Positions 12,119 through 26,580 are shown, counted from the first letter of the stretch. The stretch is 34,141 bases of DNA from an uncultured Victivallales bacterium (GCA_903933565.1 CAIZKT010000176.1:1-34141), one strand, 5' to 3'. Notes: generated by a model from the letters alone, not told the origin. Numbers and translations: made by a program.

Positions 12119-13579
12119 ATGGCGCTTCGGGAAAGCATCACGGCGGCGACCGTCTGCCTGCCCCAGGCCGCGGGGCGCTTCTATCCGGCGGCAGCGGAGC
12201 CCCTGTCGCGGGCGCTGCGGGGGTTCCTCCCGGAACGCTCGAAGCCCGTTGAAGGTGGCCCAGCCGCGGCCGTGATCGTGCCCCATGCGGCCTACAGCTA
12301 CTCCGGCCGGATCGCCGGGCGCGTCTATGCCTGCGTGGACGGAACGCGCCTCGAACGGGTGGTCGTGCTCGCCCCCAGCCACCACGCCACCTTCCGGGGT
12401 CTCGGGGTTGGCGGGTTCAGCGCTTTCCGTACCCCGCTGGGCGATCTGCCCGTCGATACCGGCATCTGCGGCGAACTGGCGCAGGGCGGCCAGGGCATCG
12501 CCAACCGCGCCGAGGCCTTCCTTGGTGAGCACGCCATAGAGGTGCAACTGCCCTTCCTGCAGACCGTCTGCCCCGCGGCCAGGCTGGTGCCGCTGCTCTG
12601 CGGCGAGATGTGGCCGGAGGAAGTGGCTGAGATCGCGGCACGCCTGGCGGCAGCAGTGCCACACGAAGGCACGCTGTGGGTGGTCAGCAGCGATTTCACC
12701 CACTACGGCGAGGACTTCGGCTATGTGCCCTTCAGGCGGGATGTTCTGGCCCGCGTCGAGCAGCTCGACCACGGCGCCATCGAAGCCATCCTGCGCCGGG
12801 ATGCGACAGCGCTGCGGGAGTACCTACGGGCGACCGGCGCCACCGTCTGCGGCGCCGACGCCATCGGCATCTTGTTGTCCCTGCTGCCGCACCTCGGCTC
12901 CGCCTGGGGCACGCACCTGCTGGAGTACACCCAGTCAGGCCGCCTGGCGCACGACGAGACGCATAGCGTCGGCTATGCCGGGATCACCTTCACCAACGCG
13001 GCCGCCCGCACCGAGTCCCTTGTCTGGCGACCCTCTGCCGCGGCTGGTGAGACGCTGCTGGCTCTGGCGCATGAGACGCTCGCCGCCGAACTCCAGGGAC
13101 GGACGTACTCGCCCCCGGAACCCGCCGCGCTGCCGACGGACATCACCCGCGTCGGCGCGGTCTTTGTCAGCCTCTATGTCGATGGCACACTGCGCGGCTG
13201 CATGGGCTCGCTGGAACCGCGGCAAGCGCTCTACCGCGAGGTCATGGTCAACGCCTCGAACGCGGCCTTCCGAGACCCGCGTTTTCAGCCGCTGCAGCCC
13301 GCCGAATTCGCCCGCCTTGACCTGGAGATCGCAGTGCTCAGTCCGCTGCGACGCCTCGCCGACCCGATGCACTTCGAGGTGGGCCGCCACGGCCTTGTCC
13401 TGCGGCGCGGGCGGCACGAGGCGGTCTGCCTGCCTCAGGTGGTGACCGAACTGGGCCCCAACCGCCAAGCGACCCTCGAACACCTCTGTCGCAAGGCCGG
13501 CCTGCCCCCCGGAGCCTGGCGCCAGGCAGCGGAGTTTTTCGTGTTCGAAGCCTGCGTGTTCCGTGCCTGCCGGAGATAG
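12119..13579 (+). CDS. amrB: AmmeMemoRadiSam system protein B (Memo-like) fused to protein A (AMMECR1)
   Basis: Memo motifs IVPHAAYSYSG, APSH, EHAIEVQLPFL, SSDFTHYG and TVCG. AMMECR1 motifs GAVFVSL, LRGCMG, AAFRDPRF, LPQV and LCRKAG. Confidence 0.92.
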   Translation: MALRESITAATVCLPQAAGRFYPAAAEPLSRALRGFLPERSKPVEGGPAAAVIVPHAAYSYSGRIAGRVYACVDGTRLERVVVLAPSHHATFRGLGVGGFSAFRTPLGDLPVDTGICGELAQGGQGIANRAEAFLGEHAIEVQLPFLQTVCPAARLVPLLCGEMWPEEVAEIAARLAAAVPHEGTLWVVSSDFTHYGEDFGYVPFRRDVLARVEQLDHGAIEAILRRDATALREYLRATGATVCGADAIGILLSLLPHLGSAWGTHLLEYTQSGRLAHDETHSVGYAGITFTNAAARTESLVWRPSAAAGETLLALAHETLAAELQGRTYSPPEPAALPTDITRVGAVFVSLYVDGTLRGCMGSLEPRQALYREVMVNASNAAFRDPRFQPLQPAEFARLDLEIAVLSPLRRLADPMHFEVGRHGLVLRRGRHEAVCLPQVVTELGPNRQATLEHLCRKAGLPPGAWRQAAEFFVFEACVFRACRR

Positions 13580-13597: not shown

Positions 13598-13734
13598 GGC
13601 GAAACGGGGAAACGGCGAGACGGCGAGGCGGCGGCCGGAGGAGGAGAGGAGGAGAGGCGAGACGGCGAAACGGGGAAACGGCGAGACGGCGAGGCGGCGG
13701 CCGGAGGAGGAGAGGAGGAGAGGCGAGACGGCGA
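13598..13734 (+). repeat. 66-bp purine-rich tandem repeat (2 exact copies plus 5 bp) built from degenerate octamers
   Basis: Units start at 13598, 13664 and 13730. Sub-units include GGCGAAAC, GGGGAAAC, GGCGAGAC and GGAGAGGA. Confidence 0.9.
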
Positions 13735-15055: not shown

Positions 15056-16021
15056 CTACGGCAACAGGTCGGCCTGCCCGTAGGTACGCGCTACAGGGGG
15101 CGCGGCGGCAGCCGCCGCCATCACCGTCATGGCCCAGAGGTCGGGGTGACGCCGGGAAAAGGCGTCTGCTTCGGCGGGCGAAAACACCATGTACGCGGTC
15201 GACAGCGCGTCGGCTGCCGCCGCCGAGTCGCAGAGGATCCAGGCGCCCATGGTGGCCGTGACCGGTCGGCCCCGGCGCGGGTCCAGAATATGGCGCCCCT
15301 TGACGGCCATTCCCGAGCCGCTCAGAGCCGCATTGTGGAGGCGCAGACGCGAGAAACCCTGGGCACTGCCCCAGTCGCCCCCGACGCCGACCACCCACCC
15401 CCGCTCCCCGGGCGTCGGCCCGGGCCCGAGGGCAAGCGCTGTACTGGTGCCCGAATGCACCAGCACATTGTCCACCTTCCAGTCCACCAGCGTCTCTCGC
15501 AACCCGTCCAGAGCGAAGCCCTTACCCACCGCGCCAAGATCCAGGATTACGCCCCGCGAATCAGGGGCGAGGGTAACGCTGAACTCGCGTGGAGCGCCGC
15601 TTTCCGGCGGGGTGGCGTAGAGTTGCAGTTGCCGCATGCCCACGCGAGCCAGGGCATCGGCAAGCAGCCTTGGCGCGGGCGTCTCCAGGCCCTGCCGCCG
15701 GGCCTCGGCCCAACAGGCGAGCAGCGGGCCGCAGGTCACGTCGAAGGCGCCCGCAGTCTCCTGGGCCAGATGCGCGGCCAATCTCAGGCAGGTATAGGCT
15801 TCGAGGGACAGACGGGCGGTCTCGCCGGGGCGCAGGCGGTTGATCTGGGAGATATCGCTGCCGGGGTCGTGGCGGCTGAGCAGGCGTTCGTAGCGGTCTA
15901 CTTCCCGAAACAACTCGCTGGCGACCTCCCCAGCATAGCGGGCGCTGCCGCCCGCCACGACGACTTCGAAGCGGGTGGTCATGGCCTCGTGGGCAAAGCG
16001 ATGCAGCGGCAGGTCTTCCAT
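15056..16021 (-). CDS. apbE: FAD:protein FMN transferase (ApbE family)
   Basis: AMTTRFEV, LSRHDPGSDISQIN, TAGAFDVTCGPL, LDLGAVGKGFALD, ALSGSG, HILDPRRG and ADALSTA. No N-terminal signal peptide or lipobox visible. Confidence 0.93.
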   Translation of the reverse strand: MEDLPLHRFAHEAMTTRFEVVVAGGSARYAGEVASELFREVDRYERLLSRHDPGSDISQINRLRPGETARLSLEAYTCLRLAAHLAQETAGAFDVTCGPLLACWAEARRQGLETPAPRLLADALARVGMRQLQLYATPPESGAPREFSVTLAPDSRGVILDLGAVGKGFALDGLRETLVDWKVDNVLVHSGTSTALALGPGPTPGERGWVVGVGGDWGSAQGFSRLRLHNAALSGSGMAVKGRHILDPRRGRPVTATMGAWILCDSAAAADALSTAYMVFSPAEADAFSRRHPDLWAMTVMAAAAAAPPVARTYGQADLLP

Positions 16022-16022
16022 G

Positions 16023-16562
16023 TCATCCCTGGGCTTGCCGCAAGCGGGCCTCGGCGTAGGTCAGGCTCAGCGCCAGCGCCAGCGCCGCCAGACCGCAGCC
16101 ACGGTGGAGCGCTACCAGCAGCACCTGGCCGTCACTCCCCAGCAGTGGCAACATGGCGACCAGGGGCGTGACCATGACCCCGATCAGGGCCAGCGCCAGC
16201 AACCAGAAGCCGAGACGGTGGCCCGGGCAATAGGCAGGACCCGCCGCTGAACCGACCTCGAAACCGAAACGCGGGCCCAGAACAAGCAGCGTCAGGGGGA
16301 ACGCCGCCGCCAGCCCGCCCCCGCAACCCACGTGCAGCAGCAGCAGGTAACCCCTCAGCGCTTGGCCTGTAAGACGGGACCCGAACCCGCTCAGGGCCAG
16401 CGCGATGAAGCTCAACGCGGCGCAGCAGAGGACGAGCCGTTCCAGGCCCGGAAACCGCTGTGCGCCGGCAGCGCCGGAGGCGCGGCTACGCCGGAGGCGC
16501 AGGCAGGCCAGCAGCAGGAGCCCGGTCCCGAAAAGGCCGAGAGCTGAGAGGAGCTGAAGCAT
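16023..16562 (-). CDS. Small polytopic membrane protein, cytochrome-b-like (FdnI/PhsC-type remnant fold)
   Basis: About 5 hydrophobic segments with intramembrane His in LLLLHVGCG and VALHRGCG. Sits in an operon between the multiheme cytochrome and ApbE. Confidence 0.6.
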   Translation of the reverse strand: MLQLLSALGLFGTGLLLLACLRLRRSRASGAAGAQRFPGLERLVLCCAALSFIALALSGFGSRLTGQALRGYLLLLHVGCGGGLAAAFPLTLLVLGPRFGFEVGSAAGPAYCPGHRLGFWLLALALIGVMVTPLVAMLPLLGSDGQVLLVALHRGCGLAALALALSLTYAEARLRQAQG

Positions 16563-16574
16563 GGCGTTCGTCTC

Positions 16575-18887
16575 TCATCCCCTATGGCTGAAGAACCCCG
16601 CCGCACGCCGCACGCCGGGCAGGACGAAGGCGAGCACGATCAGCCCGCTGGCCGCAACGGCGACTCCCAAGGCTGCCTTGAACCACGGGCGGAGGTAGAA
16701 GGTCCAGGCAAACAGCCGGTTGAAGGGGACCTGCAACCCGTGCCAGTCGTACATGTGCGTCACCGCCGACCGGGAAGTGAGCAGCGGCCCGGCCGCCGGG
16801 ACCGTACCGAACAACAGCGCCGCCGTGGGCGAATGGCAATCGGTACAGCCGCCGCTGCCCAGGGCGCGTCTCGCCGGGCGCACGTCGTGGGCGACGGCCC
16901 AGGCACAGGGCTCCGCCGCGGGGTCCGTCACCGCCTCCAGGGACAGGCCGCCGCTGGCCGTAAGCCGGAAGAGCTTCCCCGAGCTGACGTAGCCGTAGGA
17001 CACGCCCGGCACCTTCTCCGCCGCCGCCAGGACCTGCAAGACACGCGCGACCTGATCCTCGTTGAAGGCCTCCTCGCGCCCCGTCGTCGCCGCTACCGCC
17101 GCCAACACGAATTCCGGCAGCAGCGGCACGATCTCGGCGCCCCGTTGCCAGGCCCACCCGCTGAGTTTAGGGGCCGTCTCCAAGGGGGTCACCTCGAGGG
17201 CGCCATGGCTCGCTGCGTAGCGTTTGCGGCCCGCGAGCAGCAGCGGTTGTCCGGGCGCGTCAGGCCACTGCGACAGGGCCTGCAGCGTCCCCAGCAACCG
17301 CGCCGCGAGCGCGGAGTCGAGCTCCACTGCTGGGTCGAAATCGGGGACCAGTGGCGTCAGCCCGCCGGGGCCCAGCCAGGCCCACCAGCCGCCGCCGCGA
17401 GTGCCCGCTGGCGCCGGACGGGCTTGCAGGCGGCCGTCCGCGGTGGGCTCATAGAGCGAGTTGCCCAGGACCAGTACCGTCGCCTCAGATGTCTCTGCAA
17501 CCCGCCCCAGCGCCGCCAGGATGCCGCTGACTTGGTGGCCCGCATCCAGAATGCCTTTGCCCGCCGTCGCCAGCGCTTCCGGACGGAGCGGCGTCGCCTT
17601 GCCAGCCTCGATCCTGGCCCAGAATGCCGGCCAGGCCATCCGGTGCGGTGCGATGCGGCCATCCAGCGTCTTCATGAACACCGGTTCGACGATCTGGGGA
17701 GCGTCGGTGTACCACTGCGCCCGGCCGTGGATGCCGAGACGGTTGGCCCGCGCGGTACGTACCCTGCGCGGTACGTTCTCCGGCCAGAACCCCGAATGGC
17801 AGGCCGTGCAGGAGAGCGTCTCGAAATGGCTCGGCGGCAGTCCCCGATGCCGTGGGCGCGGCGCCCCGAGCCGCCCGGCCGTCCCAGCCCCGGCTTGACC
17901 CGTGCCCAGGTGACAACCCCGGCAGGAAAACTCGGCCGAACCGCGCGCTTGGCCAACCGCGGCCTCGCCCTCGTAGCCACGGATAGGCTGGTGGTCGGCG
18001 CCGTTGCGATGACAGTCGACGCACTGCAGGCCGGCCCGGGTGTGGACATCCCCGTCAACCTGCCAGCGCTCCGTCTTGACCGGCGCAACCGAGTGGCAGA
18101 ACAGGCAGTTGCGGTCCGGCGGGCGGTAGCTCAGATCCACCAGCACCCGGTGCTTGGGATCGAACTGGCCAAGATCGTAGCGGACATAGGGCGGAACCGC
18201 ATACTGGTGATCGTCGGGGTTGGGCCCATCGATCAGGCGCCAGCTCTCGCGCACCCGCGAGGCCATACCGCCGACCTCGCCAAAGCCGTCGGCGGCGGTG
18301 GCGGCCCAGCGAAAATTCTCCCGCCCGATCTGCTTGGCCCACTCGCTCGGATCCTGCCGCGGGGAAGCGCCATGGCAGGCCTGGCAGTGAATTTCGACCT
18401 TCCCCGAGACCTCCCAACGCGCCCCCGGGTCAGCCAGCTCGTCGACCGGGTCGCCCCAGCCGCCGCCCGGGAAGTGCCGTCCCCATAACGTCGTACACTG
18501 CCAGGGGGTCAACCCCAGAGCCGCCGGCGTCCACGTCTGCGGCCAGCCGTGCCCCGACACCGGCACCTGTGTCCCGCTCGCCGGGTCCACCCAGAACCAC
18601 GGCTGAGCCGGGCGCCCCAGACGCGCCGCCGGCGTCTCCGGACTGAAGTGGAAGCCGCCCGCGACGGCCGCATAATCATGGCAAGACCCGCAGGTCTGGC
18701 GCGCGGAATACGGCGGCGCGCCCGGCGCGCTCGGCACGATGGCATCGCCCGCCTCGTCGACCAGCACCAACCGGTGTACCGGCGTGGTACGGCTGCCGTC
18801 CCATTCCCCCGCCCGCCCGGACGGTTCCTGGGAACGTGCCGCGCCAACCAGGAGCAGCAGAACAACGGCGGCAGCAGGCAGGTTCAA
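16575..18887 (-). CDS. Membrane-anchored periplasmic multiheme cytochrome c (7 CxxCH)
   Basis: Sec-type signal peptide (...VGAARS). Motifs CGSCH, CQACH, CLFCH, CVDCH, CRGCH, CTACH and CTDCH. C-terminal TM helix. TTG start overlaps the upstream TGA (TTGA). Confidence 0.9.
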   Translation of the reverse strand: MNLPAAAVVLLLLVGAARSQEPSGRAGEWDGSRTTPVHRLVLVDEAGDAIVPSAPGAPPYSARQTCGSCHDYAAVAGGFHFSPETPAARLGRPAQPWFWVDPASGTQVPVSGHGWPQTWTPAALGLTPWQCTTLWGRHFPGGGWGDPVDELADPGARWEVSGKVEIHCQACHGASPRQDPSEWAKQIGRENFRWAATAADGFGEVGGMASRVRESWRLIDGPNPDDHQYAVPPYVRYDLGQFDPKHRVLVDLSYRPPDRNCLFCHSVAPVKTERWQVDGDVHTRAGLQCVDCHRNGADHQPIRGYEGEAAVGQARGSAEFSCRGCHLGTGQAGAGTAGRLGAPRPRHRGLPPSHFETLSCTACHSGFWPENVPRRVRTARANRLGIHGRAQWYTDAPQIVEPVFMKTLDGRIAPHRMAWPAFWARIEAGKATPLRPEALATAGKGILDAGHQVSGILAALGRVAETSEATVLVLGNSLYEPTADGRLQARPAPAGTRGGGWWAWLGPGGLTPLVPDFDPAVELDSALAARLLGTLQALSQWPDAPGQPLLLAGRKRYAASHGALEVTPLETAPKLSGWAWQRGAEIVPLLPEFVLAAVAATTGREEAFNEDQVARVLQVLAAAEKVPGVSYGYVSSGKLFRLTASGGLSLEAVTDPAAEPCAWAVAHDVRPARRALGSGGCTDCHSPTAALLFGTVPAAGPLLTSRSAVTHMYDWHGLQVPFNRLFAWTFYLRPWFKAALGVAVAASGLIVLAFVLPGVRRAAGFFSHRG

Positions 18888-20251
18888 GCGAGGAACTCCC
18901 GTTCGCCGAAGCGGAGCTTCCGCGCCTGCTCGACGGCGTCATTGACGCGCAGGACCGCCACCGCGGTCTCGTAGCCGACCTCGGCCGGGCAGTTCAACGG
19001 GACGCCGAAACGGATGGCGTTGAAAAAGTTCTCGAGGTGCGGCTGATGCGCCGGCTTGGCCAATTCGACGGGCAACGGCCAACTGCCGGCCTCCATGGTC
19101 ACCCGAACATCAACCGTCACGTCCCGGGTGGCGGCGCGCACGATCGGGGCCTTCACCGGGCTTAACAGACCCATCTTGACGTACGGATCCCAGTCGGGAG
19201 CATGCGGTTCGCGCAAGGCGGCGTTGCCGCGGGTCGGGACTTCCGAGATCACCAGCGAGCCGTCCTCGCCCATGAAGGTCTCGTAGAAGCCGCCGTGGGA
19301 GCTGGTGGTCAACACCTGGTAGAAAGCGCGCGCCGTCCCTTCCGGCGTCTCATAGTCGAAGATCGCCAGCACGTTGTCGTACCACTCGTGGAGTTTGTAG
19401 AAGTCCACCCCGCCAGCCGCCGTCACGGCGCTCGGGTTACAGCCGAAGACCCAGGTGAAGACATCTATCTGGTGCGAGCCGAGATCAACGATCGGGCCGC
19501 CGCCGTACTTCTTGTACCAGCGCCAGTTACGGAACTGCGACATGGAGTCGTAGCCGTACTTCTCGAGGGTCTCCGCCGGGAGCGGGCTGCGCTCCGGCCA
19601 ACCAAGGTCAGCGCTCCTGGCGCGGTTCCACTGCCCGTAGGCATGGGTGACCCGGCCAAGCAGCTTGACCTCGCGGATGAGCTTGGTGACCGCGTGGAGG
19701 TAGCGCGGGTTGCTGCGCCGCTGGTGCCCGATCTGCAAGAGTTTGCCCGTCTCTTTCGCGGTCCGCACCATGCTGCGGGCCTTTTCCAGGCTGTTGGACA
19801 TCTCCTTCTCGCAGTACACATGCAACCCGGCGCGCAGGCAGGCGTTGGCATGTTCGGCGTGCATCCAGTCCGGCGTGGCCACGATGACGGCATCCAGGCC
19901 CTTCTCCTTCTCCAGCAACTCCCGGTAATCCTCGTAGACGTTGACCACGTGGCCGTACTTCTTCAGGTAACGGCTGCCGTACTGCTGGCTGTAACCCCAG
20001 ATGTCGCAGACGGCCCGGAAGCGAATACCCGGGATGCGCAAGGCGGCCTCGATCAGGACGCGGCCCTGGGCCCCCACGCCGAGCACCGCCACCTGCAGAT
20101 CGTCGCCCGGGGTTGGGGTCAGGGTAGGCTGCGCCAGCGCGGTCGGCAGCAGGGACGCCGCCGCCAAACCCGCCCCCACGCCAGCCGAGGTCCGCAGAAA
20201 GTCGCGGCGGCTGGCCGCCGACGCGGGCTGGGCTGTCACCTTCTCGTCCAT
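18884..20251 (-). CDS. Tat-exported Gfo/Idh/MocA family NAD(P)-dependent oxidoreductase
   Basis: ATG 20251. Twin-arginine signal SRRDFLR with h-region and ALA cleavage site. Rossmann GVGAQG, VATPDWMH, CEKEM, GHQRRS, NWRWY and GGGPIVDLGSHQID. Confidence 0.93.
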   Translation of the reverse strand: MDEKVTAQPASAASRRDFLRTSAGVGAGLAAASLLPTALAQPTLTPTPGDDLQVAVLGVGAQGRVLIEAALRIPGIRFRAVCDIWGYSQQYGSRYLKKYGHVVNVYEDYRELLEKEKGLDAVIVATPDWMHAEHANACLRAGLHVYCEKEMSNSLEKARSMVRTAKETGKLLQIGHQRRSNPRYLHAVTKLIREVKLLGRVTHAYGQWNRARSADLGWPERSPLPAETLEKYGYDSMSQFRNWRWYKKYGGGPIVDLGSHQIDVFTWVFGCNPSAVTAAGGVDFYKLHEWYDNVLAIFDYETPEGTARAFYQVLTTSSHGGFYETFMGEDGSLVISEVPTRGNAALREPHAPDWDPYVKMGLLSPVKAPIVRAATRDVTVDVRVTMEAGSWPLPVELAKPAHQPHLENFFNAIRFGVPLNCPAEVGYETAVAVLRVNDAVEQARKLRFGEREFLA

Positions 20252-20340: not shown

Positions 20341-20375
20341 GTCTGACCTGTCGGACCTGTCTGACCTGTCGGACG
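20341..20375. repeat. 9-bp tandem repeat GTC(T/G)GACCT, about 4 copies
   Basis: gtctgacct gtcggacct gtctgacct gtcggacg, located in the divergent intergenic region. Confidence 0.85.
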
Positions 20376-20446: not shown

Positions 20447-20475
20447 TTGCATCCACGGCGGTGGCACGGTATCCT
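20447..20475 (+). promoter_or_regulatory. Putative sigma70 promoter of the first beta-helix gene
   Basis: TTGCAT-N17-TATCCT, about 120 bp upstream of ATG 20597. Confidence 0.45.
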
Positions 20476-20596
20476 TAGGCCCGGCGGAGCGGCGCTGCGG
20501 ACGAGTCCGGCCAGGCTGCGAGTGCGGCTGAGTCCTGAAACGCAAACGAATCAAAAGTGCCGAGGAGCCCGAGCGCGGGCTGAAGGGGGTAGGCAG

Positions 20597-23377
20597 ATGT
20601 TGAAACAACGGGTTCCCGCCGCGATCTCAGGCGGGCTGGTAGCGGCCCTGCTGTCCAGCTGCGGCACCACGGGCGACGCGACGAAGGGAACCGGCGCGCC
20701 GCCGGAACCCAGCGCCTTGCTCTACGTTGCCCCGAACGGCAACGACGCCTGGTCGGGACGATTCGCCACGCCGAACGCGGCCCAGACCGATGGCCCGGTC
20801 GCCACGCTCGAACGCGCCCGCGACGAACTCCGCAAACTGAAGCAGTCCGGAGGCCTGCCGACCGGCCCCTGTGCGGTCGAATTGAGCGGGGGCAGGTACG
20901 AGCTGAAGGTGCCCTTTGAGCTGACCGCCGAGGATTCGGGGACCGAGTCGGGCGCCATCGTGTATCGTGCTAAGCAGGGCGAGGAGGTCCGCCTGGTCGG
21001 CGGCAAGCTGCTCAGCAACTGGCAGCCGGTGACCGATCCGGCCACGCTCGAGCGCCTCGATCCGAGCGCCCGCGGCAAGGTCTTGCAGGCGGACCTGAAG
21101 GCGCTCGGCCTCACCGATCTCGGCGAGGTCACCAGCGCCGGAAAACGTCTCGAGTTCTTCTTTCGGGACCAGCCTATGCCCATCGCCCGCTGGCCCAATG
21201 AGGGCTTCGTCAAGATCGTGGACGTGCTCGGCCAGACCCCGATCGACGTGCGCGGCACCAAGGGCACGAAAGAAGGCATCTTCACCTACGCCGACGACCG
21301 TCCCACGCGCTGGAAGCAGGAGAATGACCTCTGGTTGCACGGCTATTGGTTCTGGGACTGGTCCGACCAGCGCCAGAAGGTCGCCTCCATCGACACCGAG
21401 AAGCGCGTGATCACGCTGGCGCCGCCCGTCCATGCCTACGGTTACCGCGAGGGCCAATGGTTCTACGCCTTCAACGCGCTGGCTGAACTTGACACCCCCG
21501 GCGAGTGGTATCTGGACCGCTCGGCCGGCATCCTCTACTTCTGGCCCCCGGCATCGCTCAAGCAGGGGGCCGCGGTGGTGTCGGTGCTGCCGACGCTGGT
21601 GACACTGAAGGACACCGCGCACATCACCCTGCGCGGTCTGATCTTCGAAGCGGCGCGGGACAACGGGATCGTGATCTCGGGCGGCACGCACAACGAGGTC
21701 GTGGGTTGCACGCTCCGCAACCTCGGGGCCTGGGCGGTCCGGGTCGGTGGCGGCACGGCAAACGGCGTGATCGGCTGCGATATCTACGCCACGGGCGACG
21801 GCGGCATCACCCTCGATGGCGGGGACCGCAAGACACTCACCCCCGCCGGCAACTTCGCGGACAACAACCACATTCATCACTACAGCCGCTGGAACCGCAT
21901 CTGCCGTCCGGGCATCGCGCTGGGCGGCGTCGGCAACCGCGCCACCCACAACCTGATCGACAACGCACCGCATCAGGCGATCTCGTTCGGTGGCAACGAC
22001 CACCTCATCGAGTTCAATGAAATCCACAGCGTCTGCTACGAGTCCAACGACGCCGGGGCCATCTACTCCGGCCGCGACTGGACCATGCGCGGCACGGTCA
22101 TCCGCTACAACTACCTGCATCACATCAATGGCTTCGAGGGCCGCGGCTGCGTCGGCGTCTACCTCGATGACATGTTCTGCGGCACCGAGATCGTCGGTAA
22201 CCTCTTCTACAAGGTGACGCGGGCTGCGTTCGTCGGCGGCGGGCGTGATTGCACCATCGCCAACAACATCTTCGTGGACTGCCCGCCGGCGGTACACATC
22301 GACGCCCGGGCCATGGGTTGGGCCGGCTACCATGCCGACGACTGGGTTAAGGAAGGCACCACGAAGGGCACCCTCTCCGGCATCCGCTACAACGAACCGC
22401 CCTACAGCACCCGCTACCCGAAGCTGATCAACATCCTCGCTGAAGAACCGCACGCGCCGCGCGGCAACCTCGTGGCCCGCAACGTCTGCAGCGGCGGCAC
22501 CTGGGACGAGATCGAGGCGAAGGCGAGACCGCTGGTGACCCTCGAGGACAACCTGGTCGAGGCGGAGCCGGGCTTTGTGAACGCATCCCGAGAGAACTTC
22601 CAGCTCCGCGACGACTCGCCGGCCTACAAGCTGGGGTTTCAGCGTATCCCCCTCGAGCAGATCGGGCTTTACCAGGATGGCCGCCGGGCTTCGTGGCCGG
22701 TGAAACACACAGTCCGCGACATGACTCCCGTGGCGGTCCTGCCCAAGTCCGGCGCCGTACGGACCGGCCCGCCGCCCGTCTTCACCCTGCGCCGCACCAC
22801 GGCGCCGATCCAGATCGACGGCGTCATCGAGCCGCAGGAATGGGCCGGCGCTGACCCGGCCAAGGCGATGGTCGTCGAGCAGGACCTGCAGGGCGAGAAG
22901 GTGAAGCCGGCCAGTCTGGCCTGGTTCGCCTACGACGACCAAGGCCTCGTCGTGGCCATCGATAATGCGGTCAATCCGGCGACTGCGCTGAAGCCCGGCA
23001 ACGAGTGGGGCCGGGACGACGCGGTGGAACTGGCGTTCCGCAACCCCGCTGCCGGCAAGGACGCACCGATTCTCGTGCTGCGCGGCTATCCTTCCGGGCA
23101 CTTCGAGAGCAGTCCGGAAGCCGGGGCGTCGGCGGCGGCCGTGAAGCAGGCGGCTGAGGGCGTGCTCTACGCCGCCAAGGTGGTGGCGGCCGGCCGCTGG
23201 ACGGCGGAGTGGCGGATTCCTTTCGCCGCGCTCGGGATCGACCCAGCGAAGCCACCGAAGCTCGCCTTTAACCTGAGCGTGCGCAAGACCGCCGGGCCAG
23301 ACTGGGTCCTGTGGCAGGGCACCCGGGCCGCAACCTGGGCCGTCGGCAACGCCGGAATGCTTGAACTGGCACGCTAG
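20597..23377 (+). CDS. Lipoprotein with right-handed parallel beta-helix (GH141-like) and C-terminal CBM9/DOMON-like sugar-binding domain
   Basis: Lipobox LSSC. YVAPNGNDAWSG..DGPVATLERARD, ARWPN, ELDTPGEWY, Asn-ladder repeats, DAGAIY and GVYLDD. C-terminal IDGVIEPQEW...YDDQGL...DAVEL...WTAEWRIPFAALG. Confidence 0.8.
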   Translation: MLKQRVPAAISGGLVAALLSSCGTTGDATKGTGAPPEPSALLYVAPNGNDAWSGRFATPNAAQTDGPVATLERARDELRKLKQSGGLPTGPCAVELSGGRYELKVPFELTAEDSGTESGAIVYRAKQGEEVRLVGGKLLSNWQPVTDPATLERLDPSARGKVLQADLKALGLTDLGEVTSAGKRLEFFFRDQPMPIARWPNEGFVKIVDVLGQTPIDVRGTKGTKEGIFTYADDRPTRWKQENDLWLHGYWFWDWSDQRQKVASIDTEKRVITLAPPVHAYGYREGQWFYAFNALAELDTPGEWYLDRSAGILYFWPPASLKQGAAVVSVLPTLVTLKDTAHITLRGLIFEAARDNGIVISGGTHNEVVGCTLRNLGAWAVRVGGGTANGVIGCDIYATGDGGITLDGGDRKTLTPAGNFADNNHIHHYSRWNRICRPGIALGGVGNRATHNLIDNAPHQAISFGGNDHLIEFNEIHSVCYESNDAGAIYSGRDWTMRGTVIRYNYLHHINGFEGRGCVGVYLDDMFCGTEIVGNLFYKVTRAAFVGGGRDCTIANNIFVDCPPAVHIDARAMGWAGYHADDWVKEGTTKGTLSGIRYNEPPYSTRYPKLINILAEEPHAPRGNLVARNVCSGGTWDEIEAKARPLVTLEDNLVEAEPGFVNASRENFQLRDDSPAYKLGFQRIPLEQIGLYQDGRRASWPVKHTVRDMTPVAVLPKSGAVRTGPPPVFTLRRTTAPIQIDGVIEPQEWAGADPAKAMVVEQDLQGEKVKPASLAWFAYDDQGLVVAIDNAVNPATALKPGNEWGRDDAVELAFRNPAAGKDAPILVLRGYPSGHFESSPEAGASAAAVKQAAEGVLYAAKVVAAGRWTAEWRIPFAALGIDPAKPPKLAFNLSVRKTAGPDWVLWQGTRAATWAVGNAGMLELAR

Positions 23378-23403: not shown

Positions 23404-23859
23404 TCAGCCTGGGCTGGCGTCGGCGCGGAGAGCCAACCAGGCGTCCATCGGCGTACAGGCCCCCACGGCGGCGGGCGAACGAGCCCGCTGTTCCGTATCC
23501 AGCGTCACAAGGACGGCGCCGTAGCGGATAGCCGTGGCAACATACACGGCGGCGGCACCACGCAGAGAATGCGCCGCCGCCAGGGCGGCGGCCTGCTTGG
23601 CCAGATGCGCGTCCAGAGGAACCGCAACCAAGCCTGGGACCCCGAAGGCCAGGTCCGCCAGCCGCATGGCAAGCTCCTCCTTGCCCGTACTGCGGCGCAC
23701 GGCGGCGGCGACCTCGACCGCCAGCAGCCACGGCTCCACGAGGGGCAGTTCCTGCGTACGGATAGCCTCGAGCAGCGCCCGACTGGCCTCAGAACCCGGT
23801 TCGCTGGCATGACAGGCGCTGACGAAGACGCTGGCGTCAAGCACGAGCAATCGCGGCAT
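23404..23859 (-). CDS. vapC: Type II TA toxin, VapC/PIN domain (probable catalytic Asp-to-Ala substitution)
   Basis: LVLDASVFV, LAVEVAAAV, LRGAAAVYVATA and LVTLD. ATG 23859 follows GAAGG. Confidence 0.88.
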   Translation of the reverse strand: MPRLLVLDASVFVSACHASEPGSEASRALLEAIRTQELPLVEPWLLAVEVAAAVRRSTGKEELAMRLADLAFGVPGLVAVPLDAHLAKQAAALAAAHSLRGAAAVYVATAIRYGAVLVTLDTEQRARSPAAVGACTPMDAWLALRADASPG

Positions 23860-23906
23860 GGGCGAGCACCTTCTGTTGGCGCAGGGAGTGGCTTGAACAG
23901 TCCTGG

Positions 23907-24164
23907 TCAGCGCCGCATGTCGGCCAGCAGTTCCGCTGCCGTCAAGGGAGACTCCCAGCGTCGGCTGACTTCTTCGGTGGCCGTGAAGAACTGCGCCCAG
24001 GCACGGGCCTTGGCATCGGGCGTTGGCAGGGCCTGCTCCACCGGCATAATCAGGCCCACGGCTTTGCCCCGGCAGGTGACTCGGAACGGGCTCCGGTTGA
24101 GCTGCACCGCCCGCATCACGGCCGAGGTCCGGGCTTTGAGCTCGCGAATGCTGATATCGGTCAT
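23907..24164 (-). CDS. Type II TA antitoxin, Phd/YefM family
   Basis: MTDISIRELKARTSAVMRAV...FRVTCRGKAVGLIMP is a Phd-type N-terminus; the gene lies upstream of the PIN toxin. Confidence 0.9.
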   Translation of the reverse strand: MTDISIRELKARTSAVMRAVQLNRSPFRVTCRGKAVGLIMPVEQALPTPDAKARAWAQFFTATEEVSRRWESPLTAAELLADMRR

Positions 24165-24192
24165 GGTCAACCATCCTGGCGCGCCTGGCGCG

Positions 24193-24399: not shown

Positions 24400-26580
24400 A
24401 TGTTGCGGCCAATCGCTCTCGCGGGAGTCTCAGGCGGGCTGGTAGCGGTGCTGTTGTCCGGGTGCGGCACGACCGGCGCGGCAGGGCAGGGCGCTGTCGG
24501 GGCGCCGGAACCGGCGGCGCTCTTCTACATTGCCACGAACGGTAACGACGCCTGGTCGGGACGCCTCGCCAGGCCCAACGCGAACCAGACCGATGGCCCC
24601 TTCGCCACCCTGGAACGCGCCCGGGACGAGCTCCGCAAGCTGAAGCAGACCGGTGGTCTGCCGCCCGGCGGCGTTGCGGTCGAACTGCGCGGTGGGGTCT
24701 ACGAACTGAAGGCCCCGTTTGCGCTCAGCGCCGAGGACTCGGGGACGGAGGCCTCTCCGGTCACCTATCGGGCGCGGCGGGGCGAGGAGGTCCGGCTGGT
24801 GGGCGGCAAGGTGGTGACCGGCTGGGGACCGGTGACCGACCCGACGGTGCTGGCCCGCCTGGACGAGGGCGCCCGGACGCAGGTGCTGCGAGCCGACCTG
24901 CGGGCCCAGGGGATCACGGACTACGGCGAGATGAAGACCGGCATCGCCGGGGCCGCCGGGGCACAGGGACTACAGCCCTACGACCCGGGCATGGAGCTGT
25001 TCTTCCAGGATAAGCCCATGACCCTGGCACGCTGGCCCAACGAGGGCTTCGTCAAGGTCGGCGAACTCCTGGGCGGCTCGCTGCGCGAAGCCCACGGCCT
25101 CAAGGGCGACAATGTCGGCAAGTTCACCTACGAAGGGGACCGGCCGGCTCGCTGGGTTGGCGAGAAGGACATCATGCTGCACGGTTACTGGTTCTGGGAC
25201 TGGTCCGACCAGCGCCAGAAGGTCGCCTCCATCGACACCACGGCGCGCGTCATCACCATGACCGAACCGTACCACTACTTCGGCTATCGCAAGAGCCAGC
25301 GCTACTACGCCTACAATCTGCTGCCTGAGCTGGACCTGCCGGGCGAGTACTGGATCGACCGCGAGGCCGGCGTGCTGTACTTCTGGCCGCCGGCGCCCAT
25401 CGCCGCGGGCAAGCCCATGGTCTCGGTACTGTCGGCGCTGGTGACCTTGAGCAATACCACGCACATCACGATCCAGGGCTTCGTCATGGAGGCGACGCGC
25501 GGCACGCCGGTATCCATCTCGGGAGGTACGGGGAACCTGCTGGCCGGCTGCACCCTCCGCAACACCTCGAAGTGGGCCGTCAACGTCAGCGGGACGAACA
25601 ACGGGGTGGTCGGCTGCGACATCTACAACACCGGCGAGGGCGGCATCACCCTCAGCGGCGGCGACCGCAAGACCCTCACGCCCTGCGGCCTCTACGCCGA
25701 GAATAACCTCATCTACGAATACAGCCGAATCTGCCGGGTCTGCCGCCCGGCGCTGTCGCTGAGCGGCGTGGGTATCCGCGTGGCGCACAACCTGATCCAC
25801 AACGCGCCCCACATGGCGATCAACTTCGGCGGCAATGACCACATCATCGAGTTCAACGAGATTCACAGCGTTTGCTACGAGACCGGCGACGCCGGGGCGA
25901 TCTACGCCGGTTATGACTGGACCATGCGGGGACACCAGATTCGCTACAACTACATGCACCATGTCAAGGGACCCGGGCTGCACGGGGCCAACGGGGTTTA
26001 CCTGGACGATATGTTTTCCTCCGCGACCCTCTACGGCAACGTCTTTCAGGAGGTGAACCGGGCGGCCTTCATCGGCGGTGGGCGGGACAACGTGGTGGAG
26101 AATAATCTCTTCGTGGACTGCAAACCGGCGCTGCACGTGGATGCCCGAGCGGTCGGCTGGGCCAAGGCCAGCGTCGAGAACCAACTGACCGAACGGCTCA
26201 ACGCCATGCCCTACCAGCAGCCGCCGTGGAGCCTGCGTTTCCCTCAGCTTCTGACGGTCTTGCAGGATGAACCGGGCCTGCCCAAAGGCAACCTGGTGAC
26301 CCGCAACATCTGTTTCGGCGGGGTCTGGGACGAGATCGAGAAGGTGGCCATCCCGCTGGTCACGATGCAGGACAACCTGGTGGGCGAAGACCCGCACTTC
26401 GTCGACGCGGAGCACGGCAACTTCCAGCTCAAGGACGATTCTCCGGCCTACGGGCTCGGGTTCCAGCGTATTCCGATGGAAAAGATCGGCCTCTACGAGA
26501 GTAAGCTCCGTGCCTCCTGGCCGGTGCAGCACGAGGTGCGGCAGGCCGCACCTCACAAACCCGCTGGAGACAAGCCATGA
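24400..26580 (+). CDS. Lipoprotein with right-handed parallel beta-helix (GH141-like), paralog of 20597..23377 lacking the C-terminal domain
   Basis: AAGGAG RBS and lipobox LSGC. Co-linear similarity to the upstream paralog (NGNDAWSG, HGYWFWDWSDQRQKV, IEFNEIHSVCYE, GVYLDDMF). Confidence 0.85.
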   Translation: MLRPIALAGVSGGLVAVLLSGCGTTGAAGQGAVGAPEPAALFYIATNGNDAWSGRLARPNANQTDGPFATLERARDELRKLKQTGGLPPGGVAVELRGGVYELKAPFALSAEDSGTEASPVTYRARRGEEVRLVGGKVVTGWGPVTDPTVLARLDEGARTQVLRADLRAQGITDYGEMKTGIAGAAGAQGLQPYDPGMELFFQDKPMTLARWPNEGFVKVGELLGGSLREAHGLKGDNVGKFTYEGDRPARWVGEKDIMLHGYWFWDWSDQRQKVASIDTTARVITMTEPYHYFGYRKSQRYYAYNLLPELDLPGEYWIDREAGVLYFWPPAPIAAGKPMVSVLSALVTLSNTTHITIQGFVMEATRGTPVSISGGTGNLLAGCTLRNTSKWAVNVSGTNNGVVGCDIYNTGEGGITLSGGDRKTLTPCGLYAENNLIYEYSRICRVCRPALSLSGVGIRVAHNLIHNAPHMAINFGGNDHIIEFNEIHSVCYETGDAGAIYAGYDWTMRGHQIRYNYMHHVKGPGLHGANGVYLDDMFSSATLYGNVFQEVNRAAFIGGGRDNVVENNLFVDCKPALHVDARAVGWAKASVENQLTERLNAMPYQQPPWSLRFPQLLTVLQDEPGLPKGNLVTRNICFGGVWDEIEKVAIPLVTMQDNLVGEDPHFVDAEHGNFQLKDDSPAYGLGFQRIPMEKIGLYESKLRASWPVQHEVRQAAPHKPAGDKP

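Follow-up and report, generated by a model that had tools for sequence, protein, structure and literature searches.

The window (the whole stretch of DNA analysed, 34,141 nucleotides) carries four tightly packed minus-strand genes at positions 15056–20251, which encode a Tat-signal Gfo/Idh/MocA oxidoreductase (hereafter, Gfo), a heptaheme cytochrome c, a five-helix membrane protein and a homologue of the ApbE flavin transferases (Table 1). The linkage of these genes is not a matter of chance, since the arrangement is conserved across loci of two phyla. Leaving the flavin step aside, we put the chances at about even that the four genes encode a respiratory-type periplasmic, membrane-anchored sugar dehydrogenase. 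No description of such a complex was found in the literature searched.

Verrucomicrobia, Planctomycetes and Bacteroidetes have very many Gfo/Idh/MocA enzymes exported by the Tat pathway, which contribute to glycan breakdown. In the available portions of the preprint by Nasseri et al. (bioRxiv 10.1101/2024.03.25.586180), the account of periplasmic NAD re-oxidation goes no further than 'cytochromes or small hydride acceptors'. A testable candidate for this re-oxidation is offered by the cluster, which would pair the dehydrogenase with its own cytochrome c/b acceptor and with a flavin enzyme that is predicted to bind it. Beyond that, the cluster yields an ApbE subfamily excluded by the design of a published survey, a widespread but unnamed heptaheme cytochrome family and what is probably a new FdnI-type cytochrome b relative with a single heme.

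Organization and conservation of the cluster

The Gfo and cytochrome genes overlap by 4 nt; the next two intergenic spaces measure 12 and 1 nt. The overlap has its source in the start codon of the cytochrome gene, which lies within 'gcTTGAacc'. No promoter-like sites were found between the four genes, and terminator-like sites were not above those of shuffled sequences (4 observed versus a shuffle mean of 2.8). Contigs from RNA libraries of lake water overlap parts of the Gfo, cytochrome and membrane-protein genes, reaching from Gfo into the cytochrome gene in two runs from a single study, with zero contigs on the ApbE gene (15151–16018); such libraries may contain DNA, and the contigs reveal neither levels nor single transcripts. 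The genome holds three matches to cytochrome c assembly genes (PF01578). Three beta-helix, CBM-bearing proteins adjoin the cluster in the window.

Table 1. Coordinates and assignment of the four clustered genes
Feature	Coordinates	Strand	Description and basis
Tat-signal Gfo/Idh/MocA oxidoreductase	18884..20251	(-)	455 aa, ATG start; Pfam, TIGR01409
Membrane-anchored heptaheme cytochrome c	16575..18887	(-)	770 aa, TTG start; CxxCH count, model
Five-helix, two-His membrane protein	16023..16562	(-)	179 aa, 12-nt gap; alignment, fold match
ApbE-family FAD:protein FMN transferase homologue	15056..16021	(-)	321 aa, 1-nt gap; Pfam ApbE

A sequence-only reading of the window had described four co-oriented genes with the same overlap and gaps, and its coordinates agree with ours. 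The four products it named are also borne out: a twin-arginine Gfo/Idh/MocA oxidoreductase (PF01408 and TIGR01409 above their cut-offs), an exported, C-terminally anchored seven-heme cytochrome (seven CxxCH motifs, a hydrophobic signal and a C-terminal helix), a cytochrome-b-like, His-containing membrane protein (FdnI, CybB and HyaC as top fold matches, a weak PF01292 match and an invariant His pair) and an ApbE-family protein (Pfam ApbE above its cut-off).

Synteny was followed by tblastn in 38 cytochrome-anchored loci from two phyla, 22 from the phylum of the window and 16 from a second (labelled Planctomycetota), using whole-genome searches in place of a single-protein scan of genome contigs, which found 2 loci. 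A Gfo orthologue is adjacent in 25 of the 38 loci (14 and 11 in the two phyla) and ApbE in 28 (17 and 11). Neighbourhood conservation, which the sequence-only reading had proposed as a check, thus shows the four genes to be a conserved unit. All four occur in identical order, with 78–87% identity, in one further locus (L002), and the 4-nt overlap recurs in three others (L035, L041 and L042). The cytochrome stands without adjacent Gfo in 8/22 and 5/16 loci, and in L045–L049 it is accompanied by ApbE without adjacent Gfo; five genomes in which Gfo is not adjacent were checked, and they have it elsewhere, at 49–51% identity. At genome level, 22 of the 23 cytochrome genomes hold a Gfo orthologue (E ≤ 1e-90), compared with 80 of 401 genomes of the window's phylum overall. 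The cytochrome is missing from 58 of these 80. A DoxX-like protein of 172 amino acids lies beside Gfo in 11 of the 12 loci that lack the cytochrome, as against 0 of the 38 that have it (the DoxX match is weak, E 0.02). Because this protein holds the cytochrome's position, the two are suggested to be interchangeable membrane acceptors.

The looser associations bear on a reading that we consider distinctly unlikely, in which there is no direct electron link. Gfo would then recycle its NAD with a second sugar or a 3-keto-sugar, in the manner of GFOR and the AL/BT enzymes, and the cytochrome–membrane protein pair would be a separate, quinol-linked redox module that is only co-regulated; the cytochrome's fold, which resembles octaheme tetrathionate reductase, might then point to a reductase, or to a conduit that carries electrons for a different substrate. 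The many Gfo genomes without cytochrome, the cytochrome loci without adjacent Gfo and the likeness of the cytochrome core to an enzyme are consistent with this, as is cofactor recycling without an external acceptor, of which the characterised relatives GFOR and AL3/BT3 are capable according to the available parts of their descriptions. Against it stand the overlap kept in at least three other loci, the near-complete presence of Gfo in cytochrome genomes and the DoxX-like protein, an argument for Gfo being dependent on a membrane partner.

The sequence-only reading drew the module at four genes. These do form a unit, but the real unit is larger. An Agl23/PMT_2-like membrane protein belongs to it, as does an F5/8-type-C protein that is secreted; in this genome the two genes sit together on another contig (C27), apart from the four genes and out of reach of the sequence-only reading. 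The F5/8-type-C gene is found in 12/22 loci of the window's phylum, 10/12 cytochrome-less loci and 12/16 loci of the second phylum, and the PMT_2-like gene in 3/22, 7/12 and 10/16, respectively. The PMT_2-like protein passes the NCBIfam model TIGR03663, 'flippase activity-associated protein Agl23' (161 bits, cut-off 126).

This wider membership would suit a role in the cell envelope, where the cluster would act on a lipid-linked or envelope glycan and not on a nutrient, by the same electron path with another substrate and purpose. The Agl23/PMT_2-like GT-C protein would flip or transfer a sugar, the F5/8-type-C protein would bind the glycan, and Gfo would oxidise the sugar moiety in the periplasm, comparable to the oxidation of decaprenyl-phosphoribose by DprE1. 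Electrons would reach quinone through the cytochrome with its membrane protein, or else through the DoxX-like protein. We regard such a role as unlikely. The recurrence of the two additional genes, the Agl23 score, their pairing on C27 and the fusion of the Agl23-like protein to ApbE in six genomes speak for it. However, the relatives' gene content points to 3-keto-glycoside breakdown: a 3-keto-disaccharide hydrolase (PF06439) lies within or beside the cluster in L041 and in 7/16 second-phylum loci, and L034 and L064 have TIM genes resembling xylose isomerase. The glycoside or sugar context that had been proposed for the window is supported by pathway genes in the clusters of its relatives. 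Moreover, the beta-helix and CBM neighbours in the window are typical of glycan degradation, the two envelope-type genes are not linked to the other four in this genome, and no acceptor or donor sugar emerged.

The cytochrome and the cytochrome-b-like membrane protein

The cytochrome begins with a hydrophobic signal and ends in a transmembrane helix, which is present at residues 733–767 of the AlphaFold2 model (pLDDT 86.7). Its seven CxxCH motifs (residues 66, 168, 261, 289, 322, 360 and 681) are all invariant among 78 sequences. Seven further histidines are invariant as well (H38, H80, H282, H299, H347, H354 and H667) and provide each of the seven c-hemes with a candidate conserved partner, which would leave no obvious open catalytic heme. 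This is a further point against a cytochrome that works on a substrate of its own, apart from Gfo. Pfam detects Cytochrome_C7 (PF14522, 34.5 bits), a sequence search of the PDB gave no match, and the homologues, at least 988 in number, are every one unnamed.

In fold, the heme core has one clear match, which is also its best, octaheme tetrathionate reductase (PDB code: 1sp3; Z 8.2, rmsd 4.7, 299 aligned residues). The alignment covers residues 36–729 of the model, and the runner-up reaches only Z 4.2; Foldseek against the PDB returned nothing at E ≤ 0.001. The tetrathionate reductase has eight hemes, one of which is a Lys-ligated catalytic heme. In comparison, the cytochrome has seven CxxCH motifs and a His partner per heme, is anchored in the membrane and carries an insert some 300 residues long; its sequence similarity to 1sp3 is not detectable. 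The insert (residues ~370–665) is a non-heme alpha/beta region whose only likenesses, to MbnC and dCache domains, are weak (Z about 4). In the window's phylum Gfo is adjacent in 8/8 long-insert forms and 0/5 short-insert forms. A function of the insert as a docking domain for Gfo was considered and dropped, as second-phylum homologues are without it, yet have Gfo adjacent in 11/16 loci.

In the membrane protein, H77, M137, G142, H153 and R154 are invariant, and H77/H153 is the only invariant His pair. By the positive-inside rule and our reading of the alignment, both histidines would lie at periplasmic helix ends. No Pfam family scores above its cut-off (PF01292, Ni_hydr_CYTB, reaches 13.6 bits against 30.1), and 11 of 20 family members match PF01292 weakly, the best with E 1.7e-4. 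The top folds for the model (pLDDT 81.7) are FdnI (1kqg_C, Z 12.1), CybB (5oc0, Z 11.8) and HyaC (4gd3, Z 11.2), scores within the range that helical bundles attain by arrangement alone. Foldseek against the PDB ranks 1kqf_C first (probability 1.00, E 0.27), with nothing at E ≤ 0.001. The family comprises 1078 clusters among 1.84 billion representatives, and the ESM Atlas matches are unnamed clusters, one of them with PF01292 in 16% of its members.

The protein would probably bind a single heme, as a cytochrome b subunit whose heme site faces the periplasm. It appears to share the four-helix core of FdnI, HyaC and CybB (PF01292), and on our reading the His pair, on bundle helices 2 and 4, matches the periplasmic heme of FdnI. 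Unlike FdnI-type proteins, it has two invariant histidines and not four, pointing to one heme, carries an extra N-terminal helix, scores below the Pfam cut-off and is usually fused to the heptaheme cytochrome c: in 12 of the 13 relatives examined, cytochrome and membrane domain form a single polypeptide.

The oxidoreductase and the ApbE homologue

Gfo matches GFO_IDH_MocA (PF01408) with 68.5 bits (cut-off 24), as well as the C-terminal domain families PF22725 (50.4) and PF02894 (45.8). Its twin-arginine motif reads SRRDFL and its Rossmann motif GVGAQG, strand 2 is followed by D83, and G58, G60 and G63 are invariant among 15 orthologues. The catalytic lysine of Gfo/Idh/MocA enzymes sits in an E-K-P motif; the corresponding E148-K149-E150-M151 is invariant in the same alignment, with a Glu in place of the Pro throughout the subfamily. 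The N-terminus (SRRDFLRTSAGVGAGLAAASLL) fits the S/T-R-R-x-F-L pattern of Tat substrates, with a hydrophobic stretch behind the motif, and it scores 18.2 bits with the NCBIfam Tat signal TIGR01409, above the cut-off of 16.7, and 17.5 bits with Pfam TAT_signal, below that of 22.7. R-N-R-F, R-T-Q-F or R-N-H-F variants replace R-R-x-F in L033–L035 and L041.

The top named NCBIfam model is the BT_2158 glycoside 3-dehydrogenase (NF058561), matched over positions 1–250 of 487 with 92.3 bits, far short of the cut-off of 750. Among solved structures, DgpA, which oxidises C-glycosides at C3, and other Gfo enzymes come closest, with matches confined to the Rossmann domain; the assignment of a substrate is therefore weak. 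As far as the BT2158/AL3–BT3 pathway is described in the available parts of PMC8121099 and bioRxiv 10.1101/2024.03.25.586180, it resembles the cluster in its Tat signal, Gfo fold and presumed tightly bound NAD, and its DUF1080 (3-keto-disaccharide hydrolase) and xylose-isomerase-like partners are also found in the cluster's relatives. In those same parts, NAD is recycled with a keto-sugar and the systems appear without cytochrome, ApbE or membrane partner, whereas the cluster has all three.

The ApbE homologue is the second of two in the genome (PF02424, 159.1 bits, cut-off 25.6; the other scores 242). In ApbE enzymes a His, the Mg/FAD-binding D-A-x-S-T and the G-K-G motif are the catalytic and cofactor residues. 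Here K167, G168, D172, S234-G235-S236, H244, D271, S274 and T275 are invariant among 18 sequences, and with G-K-G, His and D-A-L-S-T conserved the protein keeps its catalytic residues; their roles were taken partly from the available text of a review (PMC12052999). The active-site loop is shortened, with an 8-residue deletion relative to TM1553 and an 'SGSG' motif before the conserved His. The protein belongs to a distinct subfamily. Its N-terminus (MEDLPLHRFAHEAMTT) starts 1 nt past the preceding stop codon, and by eye a hydrophobic N-terminus was seen in 0/10 cluster, 0/6 cytochrome-less and 0/6 unfused second-phylum ApbE proteins. The survey of Meheust et al. (2021; PMC8238504) dropped genes without a signal peptide according to its available text, and this subfamily would therefore have escaped it.

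Covalent FMN attachment by ApbE, as had been put forward from the sequence, did not fare well. The canonical acceptor motif D-x-x-[ST]-G-[AS]-[ST] had no match in any reading frame of at least 120 aa across the 34-kb window and 22 related loci, and no carrier for covalent FMN emerged. Looser look-alikes, some of them not conserved, were noted by eye: HGAS behind cytochrome heme 2, ASGAAG in a membrane-protein loop and, close to the C-terminal end of the F5/8-type-C protein, a G-[NS]-T-[SG] that is conserved. The membrane protein itself was considered as an ApbE substrate and rejected, its cytoplasmic loops having no conserved Ser/Thr.

ApbE is fused to the Agl23/PMT_2-like membrane protein in six genomes (L082, L083, L084, L086, L075 and L076). 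The fusion places ApbE past the last Agl23-like helix (11 helices by our count), which argues for a periplasmic ApbE. Given these fusions and the loops without conserved Ser/Thr, Gfo was tested as the ApbE partner. The predicted Gfo–ApbE complex scores ipSAE 0.86 (0.85–0.87 in three runs; best of three controls, 0.00), with at least 92% of contacts in common between runs and partner pLDDT of at least 88. In calibration the pass mark was reached by 58/80 solved complexes and 2/110 mismatched pairs, counts that are only approximate here as our own alignments were used. The predicted interface holds no ApbE catalytic residues and no conserved Gfo Ser/Thr, and Gfo active-site residues 148–153 and 256–263 are not in it. 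As modelled, the contact resembles that of two stable partners more than that of an enzyme with its substrate. ApbE also lies beside Gfo in 6 of the 12 cytochrome-less loci and is therefore not there to serve hemes as such. The place of ApbE in the unit, as first proposed, is thus retained in part: catalytic residues and predicted Gfo binding agree with it, but the protein is signal-less and not specific to the cytochrome.

The fold, G-K-G, His and D-A-L-S-T are those of the ApbE/NosX flavin transferases, as described in the available parts of PMC12052999 and PMC8238504. Compared with the proteins covered there, the cluster ApbE is without a lipoprotein or Tat signal and without a nearby acceptor motif, has the shortened loop, is found fused to Agl23 and is predicted to bind Gfo. 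In two genomes (G152 and G164) an ATP-synthase-like ATPase neighbours ApbE, which adds nothing to the picture.

Proposed electron path

From the anatomy of the four proteins we infer that electrons flow from Gfo to the hemes. Gfo would fold in the cytoplasm with NAD tightly bound, as expected from its family, and would be exported through Tat, for which the motif is present. The signal-less ApbE, predicted to bind Gfo, may travel with it as a Tat 'hitch-hiker' or modify it before export. In flavoprotein–cytochrome c sugar dehydrogenases, likewise, a Tat signal on one subunit serves the export of another. In the periplasm Gfo would oxidise a sugar or glycoside, probably at C3 judging from the context genes of relatives, and the hydride of the bound NADH would pass by way of an ApbE-supplied flavin, at a putative flavin site. 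Electrons would then run through seven bis-His c-hemes to a single periplasm-side heme b and on to the quinone pool, a route suggested by the anatomy and the fusions. A chain from sugar through NAD(P), FMN, c-hemes and heme b to quinone had been drawn before; the conserved unit, the heme b-like subunit and the predicted Gfo–ApbE complex fit it, but its FMN carrier did not emerge.

The same anatomy would also fit flow in the reverse direction, which the sequence-only reading permitted as well. Electrons would pass from quinol through heme b, c-hemes and flavin to Gfo-bound NAD+, making Gfo a periplasmic keto-sugar reductase that might, for example, detoxify 3-keto-sugars or finish their metabolism; the related AL3/BT3 enzymes reduce 3-keto-glucose, according to the available parts of their descriptions. 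We consider this highly improbable. By textbook midpoint potentials the reduction of NAD+ by quinol is uphill, and no device to couple it was seen; a single heme b on the periplasmic side offers no obvious use of the membrane potential.

With sugar oxidation as the preferred direction, the cluster may be extended, tentatively and with considerable doubt, to a new class of respiratory dehydrogenase in the PVC group, in which an NAD-holding Gfo carries a signal-less ApbE via Tat, ApbE supplies or holds a flavin that converts the hydride of the bound NADH to single electrons, and the membrane acceptors, heptaheme-c/heme-b cytochrome or DoxX-like protein, are interchangeable. If true, this would explain net sugar oxidation by the many Tat-exported Gfo enzymes of these bacteria in a compartment without free NAD.

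Periplasmic sugar oxidation that feeds c-hemes and the respiratory chain, as proposed for the cluster, is known from LacABC-type complexes. The catalytic subunit of these is an FAD-dependent GMC protein, whereas that of the cluster is an NAD-type Gfo, with flavin, if any, supplied via the ApbE homologue; the cytochrome of the cluster carries seven hemes, and a heme-b-like membrane domain is attached to it. Pfam searches gave no match to GMC or FAD families among the four proteins or their neighbours. The FAD glucoside 3-dehydrogenase/LacABC system is named in the available text of Liu et al. (2021; PMC8121099). Genes for ETF and ETF-QO lie upstream of Gfo in two loci only (L038 and L040) and are read as local context.

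Gene layout and conservation in two phyla

The four genes that the sequence-only reading had grouped together are all on the minus strand, with the junctions that it described (see the table of features). No promoter-like sites were seen within the cluster, and terminator-like sites were not more numerous there than expected by chance; the 4-nt overlap between the Gfo and cytochrome genes is also present in three related loci (L035, L041 and L042). Contigs from two lake-water RNA libraries of a single study, with 95–100% identity, cover parts of the Gfo, cytochrome and membrane protein genes and span the Gfo/cytochrome junction (18818-19300 and 18692-18998), and none of the contigs matched to the window lies on ApbE; such libraries may contain DNA and the contigs do not show a single transcript, and the coverage lends weak support to expression. 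Cytochrome c assembly genes are present in the genome.

The linkage of the four genes recurs in two phyla, as judged from synteny counts in which the window's proteins were compared with locus flanks by tblastn (E ≤ 1e-5, with at least 40% identity for Gfo). Gene absences are under-counts because some contigs are short (L077, L085 and L092), and as the related loci are not independent, the counts are given without statistical claim. The cytochrome family is large and has no name; at least 988 homologues were found, 'hypothetical' wherever a label exists; the few named records are from Verrucomicrobia, Kiritimatiellae, Aminicenantes and one gammaproteobacterium. The cytochrome is present in 23 of 401 sampled genomes of the window's phylum and in 25 of 301 genomes of a second phylum, to which a MAG titled Planctomycetota belongs. 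A Gfo orthologue (E ≤ 1e-90) was found in 22 of the 23 cytochrome genomes, versus 80 of the 401 overall; in five genomes with a non-adjacent Gfo, it lies elsewhere in the genome (49–51% identity).

Gene counts at related loci
Locus set	Loci	Gfo	ApbE	F5/8-type-C	PMT_2-like	DUF1080	DoxX-like
Window's phylum, cytochrome-anchored	22	14	17	12	3	1	0
Second phylum, cytochrome-anchored	16	11	11	12	10	7	0
Window's phylum, Gfo-anchored without cytochrome	12	12	6	10	7	1	11

Features of the window and of related loci (L numbers; L093 is from the window's own genome)
Feature	Position	Strand	Length	Remark
Gfo	18884-20251	-	455 aa	first gene
Cytochrome	16575-18887	-	770 aa	TTG start; 4-nt overlap with Gfo stop
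Membrane protein	16023-16562	-	179 aa	12-nt gap to preceding gene
ApbE	15056-16021	-	321 aa	1-nt gap to preceding gene
Large right-handed beta-helix protein, first	20447-23377	+		weak GH141-insertion match
Large right-handed beta-helix protein, second	24400-26580	+		
Large right-handed beta-helix protein, third	26577-30083	+		CBM9-like domain
9-bp repeat, unit GTCGGACCT	20341-20374	+	3.8 copies	in 345-bp divergent spacer of Gfo and beta-helix lipoprotein genes
66-bp perfect tandem repeat	13598-13734		2.1 copies	purine-rich; between Memo-AMMECR1 and RDD/GYF genes
Memo (AmmeMemoRadiSam system protein B) + AMMECR1 (protein A)	12119-13579	+	486 aa	single protein
PIN-domain toxin gene plus Phd/YefM-type antitoxin ORF	23404-24174	-		antitoxin ORF 23907-24170
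DUF6785 + DUF6784 protein	31803-33857	-	684 aa	domains of unknown function
DoxX-like protein (example)	L062:7381-7899	-		directly upstream of Gfo
F5/8-type-C + Agl23-like genes	L093:1023-3388	-		contig C27
ApbE fusions	L075:6352-9183; L076:1595-3814; L082, L083, L084, L086			ApbE at C-terminus of PMT_2-like protein
Electron-transfer flavoprotein (ETF):quinone oxidoreductase	L038:10775-12415; L040:10783-14424			directly upstream of Gfo

Among the minor features, the 9-bp repeat may be a regulator binding site, and the PIN and Phd/YefM genes resemble a type II toxin-antitoxin system. L040, one of the two relatives with an ETF:quinone oxidoreductase, also encodes ETF alpha and beta, with a ferredoxin domain, upstream of Gfo.

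The heptaheme cytochrome and its membrane domain

The cytochrome gene product is assigned to the multiheme cytochromes by Pfam and NCBIfam. Its seven CxxCH motifs are invariant in an alignment of 78 cytochromes, together with exactly seven further histidines, a pattern that fits seven putative bis-His electron-transfer hemes. The sole clear solved relative of the AlphaFold2 model (pLDDT 86.7) is octaheme cytochrome c (PDB code: 1sp3; Z 8.2, rmsd 4.7 over 299 aligned residues), with the second-best fold match at Z 4.2. The model has a non-heme alpha/beta insert at approximately residues 370–665, for which comparison with solved structures gave no convincing match. One homologue (P0008, 1108 aa) has 11 CxxCH motifs, corresponding to four additional hemes beyond the seventh.

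The cytochrome and the membrane protein form a single unit. Of 13 relatives examined, 12 encode a fused polypeptide of 613–946 aa that contains the heptaheme domain with its transmembrane helix as well as the membrane domain; the split form is found in the window, in its close relative L002 and in L052. A library of 1.84 billion representatives contains 1078 relatives of the membrane domain (E ≤ 0.001), and long fused forms account for about 22 of the best 150 of these. Pfam and NCBIfam assign no family to the membrane protein, with weak PF01292 matches in 11 of 20 members of its family. Residues H77, M137, G142, H153 and R154 are invariant, and our reading of the positive-inside rule would put H77 and H153 where helices 3 and 5 end on the periplasmic side. 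The folds closest to the model (pLDDT 81.7) are FdnI, CybB and HyaC, with scores (Z 12.1, 11.8 and 11.2, respectively) within the unspecific reach of helical bundles; FdnI is also ranked first by Foldseek (E 0.27). The combined scores support a distant relative of FdnI-type cytochrome b that, unlike the latter, would be mono-heme and retain the periplasmic heme site only. Two-His membrane cytochromes associated with flavinylation are described in a 2024 mSystems paper.

Gfo, its proposed membrane acceptor and the substrate

Pfam and NCBIfam identify Gfo as a Gfo/Idh/MocA oxidoreductase with a twin-arginine signal, which scores 18.2 bits with TIGR01409 (cut-off 16.7) and 17.5 bits, below cut-off, with Pfam TAT_signal. 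The Rossmann and E-K motifs are invariant in 15 orthologues. The best named model, BT_2158 glycoside 3-dehydrogenase, scores far under its cut-off, and the best solved relatives, the C-glycoside 3-oxidising DgpA and other Gfo enzymes, match within the NAD domain only. Gene context gives a better hint of the substrate than these matches: a gene for a 3-keto-disaccharide hydrolase (PF06439) is located between the cytochrome gene and that for ApbE in L041 and immediately precedes Gfo in several second-phylum loci, xylose-isomerase-like genes occur in L034 and L064, and the three beta-helix proteins adjoining the window's cluster are probably glycan-degrading enzymes. Liu et al. (2021, PMC8121099) describe BT2158 as a Tat-exported Gfo with bound NAD; Nasseri et al. 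(2024, bioRxiv 10.1101/2024.03.25.586180) describe a cofactor stuck in the reduced state, with cytochromes proposed as possible re-oxidants.

That two unrelated membrane proteins occupy the same place beside Gfo is the strongest indication that it requires an acceptor in the membrane. In 11 of 12 cytochrome-less loci (L057-L068), a membrane protein of 170–172 aa with weak likeness to DoxX (E 0.02, below cut-off) is encoded directly upstream of Gfo; the 38 cytochrome loci yielded no match to it, and with this query neither did the window's genome. Besides Gfo and ApbE, the conserved set contains a membrane acceptor, which is either the cytochrome with the b-type domain or the DoxX-like protein, together with a secreted F5/8-type-C protein of approximately 220 aa and an Agl23/PMT_2-like protein that passes NCBIfam TIGR03663 ('flippase activity-associated protein Agl23'); DUF1080 is added in some lineages. 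In the window's genome the F5/8-type-C and Agl23-like genes are together on another contig, adjoining an ABC-transporter ATPase and unlinked from the four-gene cluster; this F5/8-type-C protein is 56–58% identical to cluster members.

The periplasmic sugar-oxidising electron-transfer module put forward in the sequence-only reading stands as the best-supported interpretation, with about an even chance of being right, and the functional unit is larger than the four genes it had named. The F5/8-type-C and Agl23-like proteins of the conserved cluster leave room for a reading, which we consider unlikely, in which the electron path is unchanged and the substrate would be an envelope or lipid-linked glycan. 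The sugar-oxidising module would be of a known general kind, the periplasmic dehydrogenase wired to the respiratory chain, and the composition of the cluster is unprecedented; full-text searches of the literature turned up no Gfo enzyme described together with a multiheme cytochrome and ApbE.

ApbE and its predicted complex with Gfo

The window's ApbE is a specialised paralogue. It scores 159 bits (Pfam), against 242 bits for a second, canonical ApbE elsewhere in the genome, where three FMN_bind proteins are also encoded. The catalytic His and the Mg/FAD motifs are invariant, and compared with TM1553, the loop preceding the His lacks 8 residues. The canonical ApbE acceptor motif was not found in ORFs of at least 120 aa in the window or in 22 related loci, and no carrier emerged for the covalent FMN that the sequence-only reading had placed between bound NAD(P) and the c-hemes. 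No signal peptide was seen by eye in any ApbE member (10 from the cluster, 6 from cytochrome-less loci and 6 unfused proteins of the second phylum). A 2025 ApbE review (PMC12052999) gives the acceptor motif and reports cytosolic ApbEs, and Meheust et al. (2021, PMC8238504) describe a survey from which genes without signal peptides were removed.

ApbE is not tied to the cytochrome, as it is also found in cytochrome-less Gfo loci, following the PMT_2-like gene in 6 of 12. In six genomes from two phyla it forms an in-frame fusion with the Agl23/PMT_2-like multi-pass membrane protein, whose C-terminus it follows; to our knowledge, no fusion of a flavin transferase with a GT-C-type protein has been described. 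A hand estimate of topology for the L075 fusion (11 helices, N-terminus inside) would place its ApbE in the periplasm. A target accessible to a stand-alone ApbE in the cytoplasm as well as to a fused one in the periplasm would be a protein that crosses the membrane folded, which points to the Tat substrate Gfo, and as the candidate target Gfo was therefore chosen for complex prediction.

Prediction with Gfo residues 45–455 and ApbE gave an ipSAE of 0.86 (runs 0.85, 0.86 and 0.87), compared to 0.00 for the best of three controls; at least 92% of contacts agreed between runs, and partner pLDDT was at least 88. In the calibration of the tool, the pass mark was reached by 58 of the 80 solved complexes and by 2 of the 110 mismatched pairs, counts that hold only roughly for Gfo and ApbE because our own alignments were used. 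We know of no solved Gfo-ApbE complex, so that a pass by the tool's memory is unlikely. The prediction supports binding, and ApbE seems to act as Gfo's partner, not as a servant of the cytochrome. On the Gfo side, the predicted interface involves the IPGIRF and LAKPAH stretches, which are specific to the subfamily, and a loop; on the ApbE side, it involves the N-terminal helices. It includes neither ApbE catalytic residues nor conserved Gfo Ser/Thr, and the modelled pair resembles a stable partnership more than an enzyme captured with its substrate.
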